IMG/VR virus record: IMGVR_UViG_2534682252_000011
Origin: a virus
Lineage: Duplodnaviria; Heunggongvirae; Uroviricota; Caudoviricetes
Reading direction: 5' to 3' (one strand)
Length of the DNA: 6,703 nt
Both the position numbers and the translations under genes were made by a program. The number at the start of each line of letters is the position of its first letter. Position 1 is the first letter of the stretch. The notes under the pieces are model-generated. The model searched no databases. It had not been told where the DNA came from and saw nothing but the letters and a program-made list of their open reading frames with translations. Positions 1-6,703 of this stretch are shown here, one piece after another.

Positions 1-159
1 TGATTATGGCATTCAGGCTCTGCTAAAAATGCCAGATAACATTCCGGCCTCCCCTGATTCAGGTTATAAATGACACAATATCTTGACAACACCCGTCACT
101 GTCTGTCAGAAAATATACCGCCAGGCATAAGTATCATGTGAAATCCAACTATCCTTCTG

Positions 160-202
160 AGCCAGCACCTCTCCACCGAAAGTCAGTGCTGGCTGTTTTT
201 TT
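160..202 (+). terminator. Putative intrinsic terminator: 8-9 bp stem (161-168 gccagcac / 186-193 gtgctggc), 17-nt loop, followed by gttttttt
   Basis: Perfect inverted repeat read directly from the sequence, followed by a run of 7 T (196-202). It lies in the flank I do not recognise as lambda. The loop is large for a canonical terminator. Confidence 0.4.
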
Positions 203-429
203 CCTTAATAAAGCATCTGTAACTGGTTGTTGTTCTGCGGGTTCTGTTCTTCGTTGACATGAGGTTGCCCCGTATTCAGTGTCGCTGATTTGTATTGTCT
301 GAAGTTGTTTTTACGTTAAGTTGATGCAGATCAATTAATACGATACCTGCGTCATAATTAATTATTTGACGTGGTTTGATGGCGTAGATGCACGTTGTGA
401 CATGTAGATGATAATTATTATCATTTTGC

Positions 430-436
430 GGGTCCT
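430..436. other. cosQ: cosQ-like element (gggtcct) about 24-30 bp upstream of the cosN nick
   Basis: Position relative to the genome right end (459) matches where I recall lambda cosQ to lie. The exact cosQ boundaries are from memory. Confidence 0.4.
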
Positions 437-459
437 TTCCGGCGATCCGACAGGTTACG

Positions 460-471
460 GGGCGGCGACCT
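460..471. other. cosN: cosN: 12-nt cohesive-end sequence gggcggcgacct; right genome end ...cgatccgacaggttacg ends at 459
   Basis: Exact match to the canonical lambda cohesive end GGGCGGCGACCT, preceded by the canonical right-end sequence. Nu1 starts about 190 bp downstream, as in lambda. Confidence 0.85.
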
Positions 472-504
472 CGCGGTTTTTCACTATTTATGAAAATTTT
501 CCGG

Positions 505-625
505 TTTAAGGCGTTTCCGTTCTTCTTCGCCGTAACCTAATGTTTTTATTTAAAACACCCCCTGAAAAGAAAGGAAACGACAGGTGCTGAAAACGGGCTT
601 TTTGGCCTCTGTCGTTTCCTTTCTC
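505..625. promoter_or_regulatory. cosB: cosB: terminase small-subunit binding region with R3 (cgtttcc 512-518), an A/T-rich tract at the expected IHF site I1 (536-558), R2 (ggaaacg 573-579, inverted) and R1 (cgtttcc 613-619)
   Basis: Three copies of the cgtttcc / ggaaacg core in the R3-I1-R2-R1 order and orientation known for lambda, between cosN and the Nu1 start. I could not identify a clean IHF consensus by eye. Confidence 0.65.
568..624. repeat. 16-bp perfect inverted repeat (568-583 / 609-624) with a 25-bp spacer; the arms correspond to R2 and R1
   Basis: 568-583 agaaaggaaacgacag is the exact reverse complement of 609-624 ctgtcgtttcctttct. Confidence 0.8.
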
Positions 626-648
626 TGTTTTTGTCCGTGGAATGAACA

Positions 649-1194
649 ATGGAAGTCAACAAAAAGCAGCTGGCTGACATTTTCGGCGCGAGTATCCGTA
701 CCATTCAGAACTGGCAGGAGCAGGGAATGCCCGTTCTGCGGGGTGGTGGCAAGGGTAATGAGGTACTTTATGACTCTGCCGCCGCCATAAAATGGTATGC
801 CGAAAGGGATGCTGAAATTGAGAACGAAAAGCTGCGCCGGGAAGTTGAAGAACTGAGGCAGGACAGCGAGACAGATCTCCAGCCAGGGACTATTGAGTAC
901 GAACGCCATCGACTTACGCGTGCGCAGGCCGACGCACAGGAACTGAAGAATGCCAGAGACTCAGCTGAAGTGGTGGAAACCGCATTCTGTACTTTCGTGC
1001 TGTCGCGGATCGCAGGTGAAATTGCCAGTATTCTCGACGGGATCCCCCTGTCGGTGCAGCGGCGTTTTCCGGAACTGGAAAACCGACATGTTGATTTCCT
1101 GAAACGGGATATCATCAAAGCCATGAACAAAGCAGCCGCGCTGGATGAACTGATACCGGGGTTGCTGAGTGAATATATCGAACAGTCAGGTTAA
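649..1194 (+). CDS. Nu1: Terminase small subunit gpNu1 (181 aa), intact
   Basis: 181-aa ORF beginning MEVNKKQLADIFGASIRTIQNWQEQGMPV, an N-terminal helix-turn-helix, with the LRGGGKGNEV segment. Near-identical to lambda gpNu1 as recalled. Sits immediately downstream of cosB and overlaps the A start by 26 nt. Confidence 0.95.
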   Translation: MEVNKKQLADIFGASIRTIQNWQEQGMPVLRGGGKGNEVLYDSAAAIKWYAERDAEIENEKLRREVEELRQDSETDLQPGTIEYERHRLTRAQADAQELKNARDSAEVVETAFCTFVLSRIAGEIASILDGIPLSVQRRFPELENRHVDFLKRDIIKAMNKAAALDELIPGLLSEYIEQSG

Positions 1195-2896
1195 CAGGCT
1201 GCGGCATTTTGTCCGCGCCGGGCTTCGCTCACTGTTCAGGCCGGAGCCACAGACCGCCGTTGAATGGGCGGATGCCAGTTACTATCTCCCGAAAGAATCC
1301 GCATACCAGGAAGGGCGCTGGGAAACACTGCCCTTTCAGCGGGCCATCATGAATGCGATGGGCAGTGACTACATCCGCGAGGTGAATGTGGTGAAGTCTG
1401 CCCGTGTTGGTTATTCCAAAATGCTGCTGGGTGTTTATGCCTACTTCATAGAGCATAAGCAGCGCAACACCCTTATCTGGTTGCCGACGGATGGTGATGC
1501 CGAGAACTTTATGAAAACCCACGTTGAGCCGACTATTCGTGATATTCCGTCGCTGCTGGCGCTGGCCCCGTGGTATGGCAAAAAGCACCGGGATAACACG
1601 CTCACCATGAAGCGTTTCACCAATGGGCGTGGCTTCTGGTGCCTGGGCGGTAAAGCGGCAAAAAACTACCGTGAAAAGTCAGTGGATGTGGCGGGTTATG
1701 ATGAACTTGCTGCCTTTGATGAGGATATTGAACAGGAAGGCTCTCCGACGTTCCTGGGCGATAAGCGTATTGAAGGCTCGGTCTGGCCAAAGTCCATCCG
1801 TGGCTCCACGCCCAAAGTGAGAGGCACCTGCCAGATTGAGCGTGCAGCCAGTGAATCCCCGCATTTTATGCGTTTTCATGTTGCCTGCCCGCACTGCGGG
1901 GAGGAGCAGTACCTTAAATTTGGCGACAAAGAGACGCCGTTTGGCCTCAAATGGACGCCGGATGATCCCTCCAGCGTGTTTTATCTCTGCGAGCATAATG
2001 CCTGCGTCATCCGTCAGCAGGAGCTGGACTTTACTGATGCCCGTTATATCTGCGAAAAGACCGGGATCTGGACCCGTGATGGCATTCTCTGGTTTTCGTC
2101 ATCCGGTGAAGAGATTGAACCGCCTGACAGTGTGACCTTTCACATCTGGACGGCGTACAGCCCGTTCACCACCTGGGTTCAGATTGTCAAAGACTGGATG
2201 AAGACGAAAGGGGATACGGGAAAACGTAAAACCTTCGTGAACACCACGCTCGGTGAGACATGGGAAGCGAAGATCGGCGAACGTCCGGATGCTGAAGTGA
2301 TGGCAGAGCGGAAAGAGCATTATTCAGCGTCCGTTCCTGACCGTGTGGCTTACCTGACCGCCGGTATCGACTCCCAGCTGGATCGCTACGAAATGCGCGT
2401 ATGGGGATGGGGGCCGGGTGAGGAAAGCTGGCTGATTGATCGGCAGATTATTATGGGCCGCCACGACGATGAACAGACGCTGCTGCGTGTGGATGAGGCC
2501 ATCAATAAAACCTATACCCGCCGGAATGGTGCAGAAATGTCGGTATCCCGTATCTGCTGGGATACTGGCGGGATTGACCCGACTATTGTGTATGAACGCT
2601 CGAAAAAGCATGGGCTGTTCCGGGTGATCCCCATTAAAGGGGCATCCGTCTACGGAAAGCCGGTGGCCAGCATGCCACGTAAGCGAAACAAAAACGGGGT
2701 TTACCTTACCGAAATCGGTACGGATACCGCGAAAGAGCAGATTTATAACCGCTTCACACTGACGCCGGAAGGGGATGAACCGCTTCCCGGTGCCGTTCAC
2801 TTCCCGAATAACCCGGATATTTTTGATCTGACCGAAGCGCAGCAACTGACTGCTGAAGAGCAGGTCGAAAAATGGGTGGATGGCAGGAAAAAATAA
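1169..2896 (+). CDS. A: Terminase large subunit gpA, reading frame ends prematurely (575 codons, where lambda gpA has 641 as I recall)
   Basis: GTG start at 1169 giving MNISNSQVNRLRHFVRAGL...; contains VVKSARVGYSK. Roughly 99% identical to recalled lambda gpA until ...EKWVDGRKK, then TAA at 2894-2896. Confidence 0.9.
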   Translation: MNISNSQVNRLRHFVRAGLRSLFRPEPQTAVEWADASYYLPKESAYQEGRWETLPFQRAIMNAMGSDYIREVNVVKSARVGYSKMLLGVYAYFIEHKQRNTLIWLPTDGDAENFMKTHVEPTIRDIPSLLALAPWYGKKHRDNTLTMKRFTNGRGFWCLGGKAAKNYREKSVDVAGYDELAAFDEDIEQEGSPTFLGDKRIEGSVWPKSIRGSTPKVRGTCQIERAASESPHFMRFHVACPHCGEEQYLKFGDKETPFGLKWTPDDPSSVFYLCEHNACVIRQQELDFTDARYICEKTGIWTRDGILWFSSSGEEIEPPDSVTFHIWTAYSPFTTWVQIVKDWMKTKGDTGKRKTFVNTTLGETWEAKIGERPDAEVMAERKEHYSASVPDRVAYLTAGIDSQLDRYEMRVWGWGPGEESWLIDRQIIMGRHDDEQTLLRVDEAINKTYTRRNGAEMSVSRICWDTGGIDPTIVYERSKKHGLFRVIPIKGASVYGKPVASMPRKRNKNGVYLTEIGTDTAKEQIYNRFTLTPEGDEPLPGAVHFPNNPDIFDLTEAQQLTAEEQVEKWVDGRKK

Positions 2897-3095
2897 CTGT
2901 GGGACAGCAAAAAGACGACGCAATGAGGCGCTCGACTGCTTCGTTTATGCGCTGGCGGCGCTGCGCATCAGTATTTCCCGCTGGCAGCTGGATCTCAGTG
3001 CACTGCTGGCGAGCCTGCAGGAAGAGGATGGTGCAGCAACCAACAAGAAAACACTGGCAGAATACGCCCGTGCCTTATCCGGAGAGGATGAATGA
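2897..3095 (+). pseudogene. A: Displaced 3' end of A: LWDSKK still in the A frame (2897-2914), then [59 protein letters not shown] in the +1 frame, ending in the ATGA overlap with W
   Basis: Frame-0 ORF 2880..3095 encodes the expected gpA C-terminus and ends exactly at the W start (atg 3092-3094 / tga 3093-3095). Recovering the ancestral protein needs both readthrough of TAA 2894-2896 and a +1 shift near 2915. Confidence 0.7.
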
Positions 3096-4900
3096 CGCGA
3101 CAGGAAGAACTTGCCGCTGCCCGTGCGGCACTGCATGTACCTGATGTACAGGAAAACGGGTGGCAACGGTTACAGAAAGACGGACGGCGAGTGGAGTTTA
3201 CGACCACTTCCGTGTCTGACCTGAAAAAATACATTGCTGAGCTGGAAGTGCAGACCGGCATGACACAGCGACGCAGGGACCTGCAGGATTTTATGTATGA
3301 AAATCGTCCACCATTCCCACCCTTCGTGGGGCCGGACGGCATGACATCGCTGCGTGAATATGCCGGTTATCACGGCGGTGGCAGCGGATTTGGTGGGCAG
3401 TTGCGGGCGTGGAACCCACCGGGTGAAAGTGTGGATGCAGCCCTGCTGCCCAACTTTACCCGTGGCAATGCCCGCGCAGACGATCTGGTACGCAATAACG
3501 GCTATGCCGCCAACGCCATCCAGCTGCATCAGGATCATATCGTCGGGTCTTTTTTCCGGCTCAGTCATCGCCCAAGCTGGCGCTATCTGGGCATCGGGGA
3601 GGAAGAAGCCCGTGCCTTTTCCCGCGAGGTTGAAGCGGCATGGAAAGAGTTTGCCGAAGATGACTGTTGCTGCATTGACGTTGAGCGAAAACGCACGTTT
3701 ACCATGATGATTCGGGAAGGTGTGGCCATGCACGCCTTTAACGGTGAACTGTTCGTTCAGGCCACCTGGGATACCCGTCCCTCGCGACTGTTCCGGACAC
3801 AGTTCCGGATGGTCAGCCCGAAGCGCATCAGCAACCCGAACAATACCAGCGACAGCCGGAACTGCCGTGCCGGTGTGCAGATTAATGACAGCGGTGCGGC
3901 GCTGGGATATTACGTCAGCGAGGACGGGTATCCTGGCTGGATGCCGCAGAAATGGACATGGATACCCCGCGAGTTACCCGGCGGGCGCGCTTCGTTCATT
4001 CACGTCTTTGAACCCGTGGAGGACGGGCAGACCCGCGGTGCAAATGTGTTTTACAGCGTGATGGAGCAGATGAAGATGCTCGACACGCTGCAGAACACGC
4101 AGCTGCAGAGCGCCATTGTGAAGGCGATGTATGCCGCCACCATTGAGAGTGAGCTGGATACGCAGTCAGCGATGGATTTTATTCTGGGCGCGAACAGTCA
4201 GGAGCAGCGGGAAAGGCTGACCGGCTGGATTGGTGAAATTGCCGCGTATTACGCCGCAGCACCGGTCCGTCTGGGAGGCGCAAGAGTGCCGCACCTGATG
4301 CCGGGGGACTCACTGAACCTGCAGACGGCTCAGGACACGGATAACGGCTACTCCGTGTTTGAGCAGTCACTGCTGCGGTATATCGCTGCCGGGCTGGGTG
4401 TCTCGTATGAGCAGCTTTCCCGGAATTACGCCCAGATGAGCTACTCCACGGCACGGGCCAGTGCGAACGAGTCGTGGGCGTACTTTATGGGGCGGCGAAA
4501 ATTCGTCGCATCCCGTCAGGCGAGCCAGATGTTTCTGTGCTGGCTGGAAGAGGCCATCGTTCGCCGCGTGGTGACGTTACCTTCAAAAGCGCGCTTCAGC
4601 TTTCAGGAAGCCCGCAGTGCCTGGGGGAACTGCGACTGGATAGGCTCCGGTCGTATGGCCATCGATGGTCTGAAAGAAGTTCAGGAAGCGGTGATGCTGA
4701 TAGAAGCCGGACTGAGCACCTACGAGAAAGAGTGCGCGAAACGCGGTGACGACTATCAGGAAATTTTTGCCCAGCAGGTCCGTGAAACGATGGAGCGCCG
4801 CGCAGCTGGTCTTAAACCGCCCGCCTGGGCGGCTGCGGCATTTGAATCCGGGCTGCGACAATCAACAGAGGAGGAGAAGAGTGACAGCAGAGCTGCGTAA
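3092..4900 (+). CDS. B: Fused reading frame: head-tail joining protein gpW N-terminus (about 62 aa, no stop) continuous with portal protein gpB; an intact portal could also start at the internal ATG 3293
   Basis: 602-aa ORF starts [15 protein letters not shown]... (gpW), has the SD ggagagg at 3081-3087, and continues without a stop into [23 protein letters not shown]...[10 protein letters not shown] (gpB). The lambda-position W stop tga (3298-3300) and B start atg (3297-3299) are both out of frame here. In-frame ATG at 3293 with agga at 3285-3288 would give a 535-aa portal. Confidence 0.85.
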
Positions 4901-6202
4901 TCTCCCGCATATTGCCAGCATGGCTTTTAATGAGCCGCTGATGCTTGAACCCGCCTATGCGCGGGTTTTCTTTTGTGCGCTTGCAGGCCAGCTTGGGATC
5001 AGCCGCCTGACGGATGCAGTATCCGGCGACAGCCTGACTGCCGGAGAGGCACCCGCGGCGCTGGCGTTATCCGGTGATGATGACGGACCACGACAGGCCC
5101 GGAGTTATCAGGTCATGAACGGCATCGCCGTGCTGCCGGTGTCCGGTACGCTGGTCAGCCGGACGCGGGCGCTGCAGCCGTATTCGGGAATGACCGGTTA
5201 CAACGGCATTATCGCCCGTCTGCAACAGGCTGCCAGCGATCCGATGGTGGACGGCATTCTGCTCGATATGGACACACCGGGCGGGATGGTGGCGGGAGCA
5301 TTTGACTGTGCTGACATCATCGCCCCGTGTGCGAGACATAAAAACCGGTATGGGCGCTGGCCAACGACATGAACTGCAGTGCAGGTCAGCTGCTTGCCAG
5401 CGCCGCCTCCCGGCGTCTGGTCACGCAGACCGCCCGGACAGGCTCCATCGGCGTCATGATGGCTCACAGTAATTACGGTGCTGCCCTGGAGAAACAGGGC
5501 GTGGAAATCACGCTGATTTACAGCGGCAGCCATAAGGTGGATGGCAACCCCTACAGCCATCTACCGGGTGATGTCCGGGAAACACTGCAGTCCCGGATGG
5601 ATGCAACCCGCCGGATGTTTGCGCAGAAGGTGTCGGCATATACCGGCCTGTCCGTGCAGGCTGTGCTGGATACCGAGGCTGCAGTGTACAGCGGTCAGGA
5701 GGCCATTGATGCCGGACTGGCTGATGAACTTGTCAACAGCACCGATGCGATCACCGTTATGCGTGATGCACTGGATGCACGTAAATCCCGTCTCTCAGGA
5801 GGGCGAATGACCAAAGAGACTCAATCAACAACTGTTTCAGCCACTGCTTCGCAGGCTGACGTTACTGGCGTGGTGCCAGCGACGGAGGGCGAAAACGCCA
5901 GCGCGGCGCAGCCGGACGTGAACGCGCAGATCACCGCTGCGGTTGCGGCAGAAAACAGCCGCATTATGGGGATCCTCAACTGTGAGGAGGCTCACGGACG
6001 CGAAGAACAGGCCCGCGTGCTGGCAGAAACCCCCGGTATGACCGTGGAAACGGCCCGCCGCATTCTGGCCGCAGCACCACAGAGTGCACAGGCGCGCAGT
6101 GATACTGCGCTGGATCGTCTGATGCAGGGGGCACCGGCACCGCTGGCTGCAGGTAACCCGGCATCTGATGCCGTTAACGATTTGCTGAACACACCAGTGT
6201 AA
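4881..6202 (+). pseudogene. C: Capsid assembly protease gpC (S49/ClpP-like), split by a net +2 frameshift at about 5323-5344 into ORF pieces 4881..5372 and 5369..6202
   Basis: GTG start 4881 with strong SD gaggagga (4869-4876) and a 20-nt overlap with the B stop, as in lambda. Frame 0 reads ...GAFDCADIIAPCARHKNRYGRWPTT then stops; the gpC continuation PVWALANDMNCSAGQLLASAASRR... is in frame 2. The ORF-track start at 4746 is inside B and is not the real start. Confidence 0.8.
5597..6202 (+). CDS. Nu3: Scaffolding protein gpNu3 (201 aa), nested in-frame in the 3' part of C, intact
   Basis: Internal ATG at 5597 (MDATRRMFAQKVSAYTGL...) sharing the C stop at 6200-6202. Length and position match lambda Nu3. 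It lies downstream of the C frameshift, so it is unaffected. Confidence 0.75.
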   Translation: MDATRRMFAQKVSAYTGLSVQAVLDTEAAVYSGQEAIDAGLADELVNSTDAITVMRDALDARKSRLSGGRMTKETQSTTVSATASQADVTGVVPATEGENASAAQPDVNAQITAAVAAENSRIMGILNCEEAHGREEQARVLAETPGMTVETARRILAAAPQSAQARSDTALDRLMQGAPAPLAAGNPASDAVNDLLNTPV

Positions 6203-6211
6203 GGGATGTTT

Positions 6212-6544
6212 ATGACGAGCAAAGAAACCTTTACCCATTACCAGCCGCTGGGCAACAGTGACCCGGCTCATACCGCAACCGCGCCCGGCGGATTGAGTGC
6301 GAAAGCGCCTGCAATGACCCCGCTGATGCTGGACACCTCCAGCCGTAAGCTGGTTGCGTGGGATGGCACCACCGACGGTGCTGCCGTTGGCATTCTTGCG
6401 GTTGCTGCTGACCAGACCAGCACCACGCTGACGTTCTACAAGTCCGGCACGTTCCGTTATGAGGATGTGCTCTGGCCGGAGGCTGCCAGCGACGAGACGA
6501 AAAAACGGACCGCGTTTGCCGGAACGGCAATCAGCATCGTTTAA
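6212..6544 (+). CDS. D: Head decoration protein gpD (110 aa), intact
   Basis: [27 protein letters not shown]...AISIV, near-identical to recalled lambda gpD. aaggga SD at 6201-6206; starts 9 nt after the C stop, as in lambda. The ORF-track start at 6206 (MFM...) is probably not used. Confidence 0.95.
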
Positions 6545-6561
6545 CCTGACCCTTCATCACT

Positions 6562-6587
6562 AAAGGCCGCCTGTGCGGCTTTTTTTA
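6562..6587 (+). terminator. D-E intergenic hairpin (stem 6566-6570 gccgc / 6575-6579 gcggc, loop ctgt) followed by a run of 7 T; putative attenuator or RNA-stability element
   Basis: Inverted repeat plus T-run read directly from the sequence. Its function is not known to me, and full termination here would be odd because E is needed in amounts similar to D. Confidence 0.3.
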
Positions 6588-6599
6588 CGGGATTTTTTT

Positions 6600-6703
6600 A
6601 TGTCGATGTACACAACCGCCCAACTGCTGGCGGCAAATGAGCAGAAATTTAAGTTTGATCCGCTGTTTCTGCGTCTCTTTTTCCGTGAGAGCTATCCCTT
6701 CAC
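6600..6703 (+). CDS. E: Major capsid protein gpE, 5' partial (first 35 codons; runs off the window end)
   Basis: ATG at 6600 giving MSMYTTAQLLAANEQKFKFDPLFLRLFFRESYPF, matching the lambda gpE N-terminus as recalled. Confidence 0.9.
   Translation, partial: MSMYTTAQLLAANEQKFKFDPLFLRLFFRESYPF

Follow-up and report, generated by a model that had tools for sequence, protein, structure and literature searches.

The window analyzed here is a stretch of 6,703 bp which makes up the whole of contig AMTQ01000039.1 in the draft assembly GCA_000302735.1 of E. coli PA7. The identity of the two sequences was verified. The window encodes a lambda-type head-gene block in the order Nu1-A-W-B-C/Nu3-D-E. The exact lambda cohesive-end sequence GGGCGGCGACCT (cosN) is located at 460-471, 178 nt upstream of Nu1, as in lambda. 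Nu1 lies at 649-1194 and is followed by the terminase large-subunit gene A (1169-3095), which is broken as written. Genes W and B form one fused ORF of 602 aa on the plus strand (3092-4900). The gene C locus, encoding a lambda-type prohead protease of the S49 family, spans 4881..6202 (+) and comprises 439 codons after two extra bases are deleted. The Nu3 scaffold gene is nested in frame within C (5597..6202, +). D lies at 6212-6544 as called and the start of E is found at the end of the window. The left end (1..224, no strand) comes from a different O157 prophage type and is joined to the Sp8-type block via a shared cos-region repeat at 225-504.

The block was compared to known prophages. Sp8 of E. 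coli O157:H7 Sakai (ECs_1629-ECs_1635) and the equivalent prophage of re-sequenced EDL933 (CP008957) have the same gene order and a nucleotide identity of 99.8% over 225-6703. Sp8 differs from the window in lacking its nine private indels, the base swap at 2894-2895 and one substitution, and in having another left flank in place of 1-224. Lambda has 97.5% DNA identity across the block. Lambda gene C and that of the window share the NCSAGQ motif, which includes Ser166, and an internal Nu3 start in frame, but lambda gene C is in one piece whereas that of the window is, as written, in two pieces of 163 aa and 277 aa.

Gene C of the window was read in frame 0 from GTG 4881 and ended with ...DIIAPCARHKNRYGRWPTT*, the stop being TGA at 5370-5372. 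This 5' fragment (EKH02012.1; 4881..5372, +) is comprised of 148 authentic codons, an out-of-frame tail of 15 codons (PCARHKNRYGRWPTT) and the TGA. The 3' ORF (EKH02013.1; 5369..6202, +) starts at Met163 and encodes 277 aa, which include Ser166, most of the S49 domain and the Nu3 part. When gene C was aligned base by base to Sakai Sp8, re-sequenced EDL933 and lambda, exactly two single-base insertions were found, one C and one A. The extra C is in the cccc run at 5323..5326 (+, local context tcgCCCCgtg), where the aligned reference has CCC. The extra A is in the aaaaa run at 5340..5344 (+, catAAAAAcc), where the aligned reference has AAAA. The initial annotation had described gene C as split by two single-base insertions, and this was confirmed by the alignment. 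The coordinates it gave for the frame-0 stop and for both runs were also correct. The spacing of the insertions had been put at 19 nt and is actually 17-18 nt, depending on their placement within the runs.

Deletion of both bases gave an ORF of 439 codons (4881-6202 less two bases). Its product had 0 differences to Sakai ECs_1633 and differed from lambda gpC at 9 of 440 aligned positions. Deletion of either base alone was insufficient, as a stop at codon 197 remained. As written, no continuous ORF of about 439 codons lies between portal gene B and decoration gene D. The B-C-D synteny and the in-frame nested Nu3 are both present, and the continuity of the ORF returns on deletion of the two bases. 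Nu3 runs from ATG 5597 to 6202, encodes 201 aa and is untouched, in agreement with its earlier description as intact. By offset it matches lambda nu3 at 5132-5737, lambda C being located at 4418-5737.

The Pfam domain Peptidase_S49 (PF01343) was matched by residues 150-297 of the intact reference gpC (E=3.2e-43) and by the downstream 277-aa ORF (E=9.7e-38). Residues 81-298 of gpC aligned to the B. subtilis SppA structure 3RST (E=1.5e-21). Since the break in gene C falls at codons 148-154, it cuts through the middle of the catalytic fold. The serine of NCSAGQ is residue 166 of the repaired gpC and lies three residues into the 5369-6202 ORF. It aligned with the serine of the SppA 'AASGG' segment. 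Medina et al. are said to have reported Ser166 as the gpC nucleophile in 2010. The serine motif had been placed in the severed part of the gene, and NCSAGQ is indeed located there. The N-terminal part is severed from it as had been claimed, the 5' fragment ending before Ser166 and most of the S49 domain. Judged from these alignments, neither gpC fragment would be expected to give an active protease. In a passage of PMC3224144 which cites Medina et al. 2010, gpC is described as the viral protease of the lambda prohead, which works together with portal B and scaffold Nu3. Were the lesions real, a 163-aa N-terminal gpC would be made, and possibly a 277-aa fragment without the first half of the SppA/ClpP-like fold. 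There would then be no active prohead protease and no viable heads, with Nu3 still produced.

The split allele was searched for in a range of sequence collections. An exact 44-mer across both insertions had 0 matches in GTDB representative genomes, IMG/VR and JGI metagenome contigs. The segment was present in 2,475 of 5,426 finished E. coli genomes, and the double-insertion allele was found in none of the 5,426. The best full-length match among them had an identity of 98.0%, which corresponds to the two gaps. A gapped pattern allowing 0 or 1 extra base per run returned 84 copies from IMG/VR, all of wild-type length. The frameshift-specific 163-aa product was found on one contig in an index of 153 billion genes, and this contig was AMTQ01000039.1. 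At the two run sites of gene C the window form was present at 0 of 94 independent loci and the reference CCC / AAAA at 87 loci. The initial annotation had named ccc and aaaa as the corrected form that would restore one 439-codon ORF. This was borne out at 87 of 87 fetched loci with the segment and in every full-length match to a finished genome, the comparison covering loci other than that of strain PA7 itself. Hundreds of O157 genomes are at least 99% identical in the head block and are without the lesions. No second sequence reproducing the lesion was found in any collection searched.

Both insertions fall within short homopolymer runs, and skipping one base at each recovers the intact frame, which is consistent with programmed recoding. 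Two ribosomal +1 shifts, or transcriptional slippage at C4 and A5, would then give some full-length gpC and tune the level of the protease. However, this would need two independent low-efficiency events within 18 nt, and the same runs are unshifted at all 87 fetched loci with the segment, with no match to the shifted form in any collection. Efficient transcriptional slippage needs longer runs than 4-5 bases. The contig also contains seven further indels at sites which are mostly not slippery. As the arrangement is conserved in no homologue and two shifts are needed, programmed recoding was effectively excluded, its probability being negligible.

Two other sequences containing the 277-aa ORF, CP043011.1 and a Logan contig, were considered as independent support for the split and rejected. 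CP043011.1 has a different lesion, and the Logan contig starts at the ATG of that ORF. The head block of CP043011.1 (2558950-2571783) is like that of the window in that many single-base indels fragment A, B and C and in that the gpC 3' ORF of 277 aa is identical. The portal is in three pieces, gpA and gpC are also fragmented, and the lesion in C is the loss of a G located 28 nt upstream. It is unlike the window in that 19 of its 19 indels are deletions, mostly in homopolymer runs, compared to 8 insertions among the 9 indels of the PA7 contig, of which only some extend runs. CP043011.1 looks like an unpolished long-read assembly.

Gene C is not the only gene of the contig with such lesions. In addition to the two insertions described in the initial annotation, seven more private single-base indels and the base swap were found, which break gpA and fuse W and B. 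Over 225-6703 Sakai Sp8 and re-sequenced EDL933 are identical to each other, and alignment of the window to Sp8 gave 14 differing positions in 6,479 aligned bases. Nine of the 14 are indels of a single base, eight being insertions and one a deletion. They form three clusters and, as written, damage four essential head genes, A, W, B and C. Cluster 1 is in gene A (2894..2915, +). The reference has AT and the window TA at 2894-2895, and the reference A7-T-A-C is changed to A6-T-AA-C, so that codon 575 of gpA is followed by a TAA stop. The rest of gene A, an ORF of 71 aa (2880-3095), is shifted by an extra A at 2915. Cluster 2 is in W and the start of B (3138..3326, +) and is made up of +T 3138, +T 3147, +T 3170, -G 3275, +C 3305 and +G 3326. 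It scrambles 11 residues of W, bypasses the W stop codon and fuses W to portal B. Cluster 3 consists of the two insertions in gene C (C at 5323, A at 5340). The differences at 328 and 360 are in the left-end segment, where the contig matches the different O157 prophage. Position 4284 is the sole ordinary private substitution, an A to G change giving Lys to Arg in the portal (caaAag to caaGag). It was seen in no other locus examined and could be a real SNP or another error.

Apart from 4284 the private lesions occupy eleven positions, all within the three clusters. At these eleven positions the window version was present at 0 of 94 independent loci and the reference version at 26-87 loci. The median gap between the nine indels was 26.5 nt and five gaps did not exceed 30 nt. 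In 200,000 random placements this degree of clustering was never reached. Only three of the eight insertions lengthen a run already present, and a simple model of homopolymer error therefore fails to explain the full set. When the flow order of pyrosequencing was considered, 8 of 8 insertions fitted single-flow overcalls, compared to 83% of random insertions (P about 0.18-0.23).

The lesions could also be real frameshifts, by which the Sp8-type prophage of PA7 would have been inactivated in the four head genes A, W, B and C. They are present in the deposited sequence, and the break in C, lying within the fold aligned to 3RST (81-298), would hence be inactivating. In finished genomes, the other prophage which shares the left flank of the window has an IS66-family element interrupting its Nu1. 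It is common in O157 for lambdoid prophages to be defective, with frameshifts and IS insertions. Since the prophages of O157 are often truly defective, a real pseudogene should be given some weight a priori. Against this, nine indels and a base swap were found over 6.5 kb compared to one ordinary substitution, and the indels lie in about 230 nt. Spontaneous base substitutions are several-fold commoner than indels in E. coli, and indels that arise naturally tend to fall in longer runs. Genuine decay would be expected to leave a lesion that is reproducible and a natural mutation spectrum; the ratio found was 9 indels to one substitution, and the indels were clustered. The lesions are also absent from every other sequence searched, including the near-identical O157 genomes, and the junction at the left end is without precedent. 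Real frameshifts are thus unlikely. A burst of clustered, insertion-biased indels in A, W, B and C with almost no substitutions, which would be an unusual local mutational signature leaving Nu3 without its protease, is very unlikely. The pseudogenized protease implied by the initial annotation was not supported, as the lesions are private and clustered, with nine indels on one small draft contig.

The contig shows several signs of derivation from a repeat region. Bases 1-420 match a different O157 prophage at 100%, and it is this prophage in which Nu1 carries the IS66-family insertion. Bases from 361 onward are Sp8-type, the cos-region segment 225-504 being shared by the two prophage types. 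Coverage of at least 80% of window positions 1-1000 at one place was found in 1 of 5,426 finished genomes, and this hit ranked below hits with 78%. As the junction is essentially absent from the 5,426 finished genomes, the contig is chimeric or else a rare recombinant. In at least 10 other draft assemblies of E. coli, a contig stops precisely at codon 575 of gpA, within the A7 run at about 2895. This codon is a recurrent assembly breakpoint and coincides with indel cluster 1. Many other drafts contain partial gpC fragments of 127-155 aa, with the contig ending near cluster 3. In O157 genomes, parts of the window match at up to 7-9 places, and the gene C segment is present in 2-4 copies.

These observations bear on a variant of the artefact in which reads from two or more diverged PA7 prophage copies were collapsed into one contig, the indels then being differences between the copies. 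The number of matching places per O157 genome, the switch of prophage type within 225-504 and the contig ends of other drafts at cluster 1 and near cluster 3 are all consistent with this. The three-way alignment with Sp8 and the Stx1-phage copy was not. The window followed Sp8 at 59 of 59 sites discriminating the two, and no inserted base matches the Stx1-phage copy. Clusters 1 and 2 are also within 2831-3281, where the Sp8 and Stx1-phage copies are identical. Mixing with the Stx1-phage paralogue was rejected as the cause on these grounds, a result which applies to that paralogue only. A collapse of copies in general is possible but doubtful. Because Sp8 is followed at all 59 sites, the background of the window is plain Sp8-type sequence.

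The two extra bases in gene C are very probably errors of consensus or base calling in a PA7 contig of low quality derived from repeats, to judge from the sequence comparisons. The split is attributed to an artefact because the indels are private, clustered and insertion-biased, with almost no substitutions, and because they occur on a short mosaic draft contig whose background sequence is that of an intact prophage found in hundreds of finished O157 genomes. Several marks of an artefact were found here: the lesions occur in one record and in none of the near-identical sequences obtained independently, the indels are clustered and outnumber substitutions, and the contig is short and comes from a repeat region of a draft assembly. 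The lesions would accordingly be errors and not mutations, and the underlying gene of PA7 is most likely an ordinary intact Sp8-type gene C.

Such errors may have arisen as follows. In O157:H7 genomes there are several lambdoid prophages that are nearly identical, and draft assemblers break or collapse these regions into short contigs of poor consensus. Short stretches of poorly supported consensus could then give rise to clustered single-base insertions. Automatic gene calling then turned the result into the two fragment proteins EKH02012.1 and EKH02013.1. In O157 drafts lambdoid prophages have been described as hard to assemble, and the 454 data of sister PA strains had to be corrected at homopolymers (PMC4587872). 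For sister strains sequenced at the same centre, Illumina reads were assembled with Velvet or 454+Illumina hybrid data with Celera (PMC3593324). The strains tabulated in that paper include PA3, PA5 and PA9, and PA7 (AMTQ) is not among them. A literature search on the PA7 accession AMTQ00000000 gave no match.

The split of gene C is most likely not real biology. On this reading the errors of the contig have been carried into protein databases in the form of fragments, namely EKH02012.1 ('minor capsid C domain protein'), EKH02013.1 ('minor capsid protein C') and a 575-aa gpA. Scans for split genes in draft genomes will keep meeting such repeat-derived prophage contigs. Private clustered indels in neighbouring genes offer a quick way to separate an artefact of this kind from a real pseudogene. 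If the lesions were real, PA7 would add another case to the defective lambdoid prophages that are well known from O157:H7.
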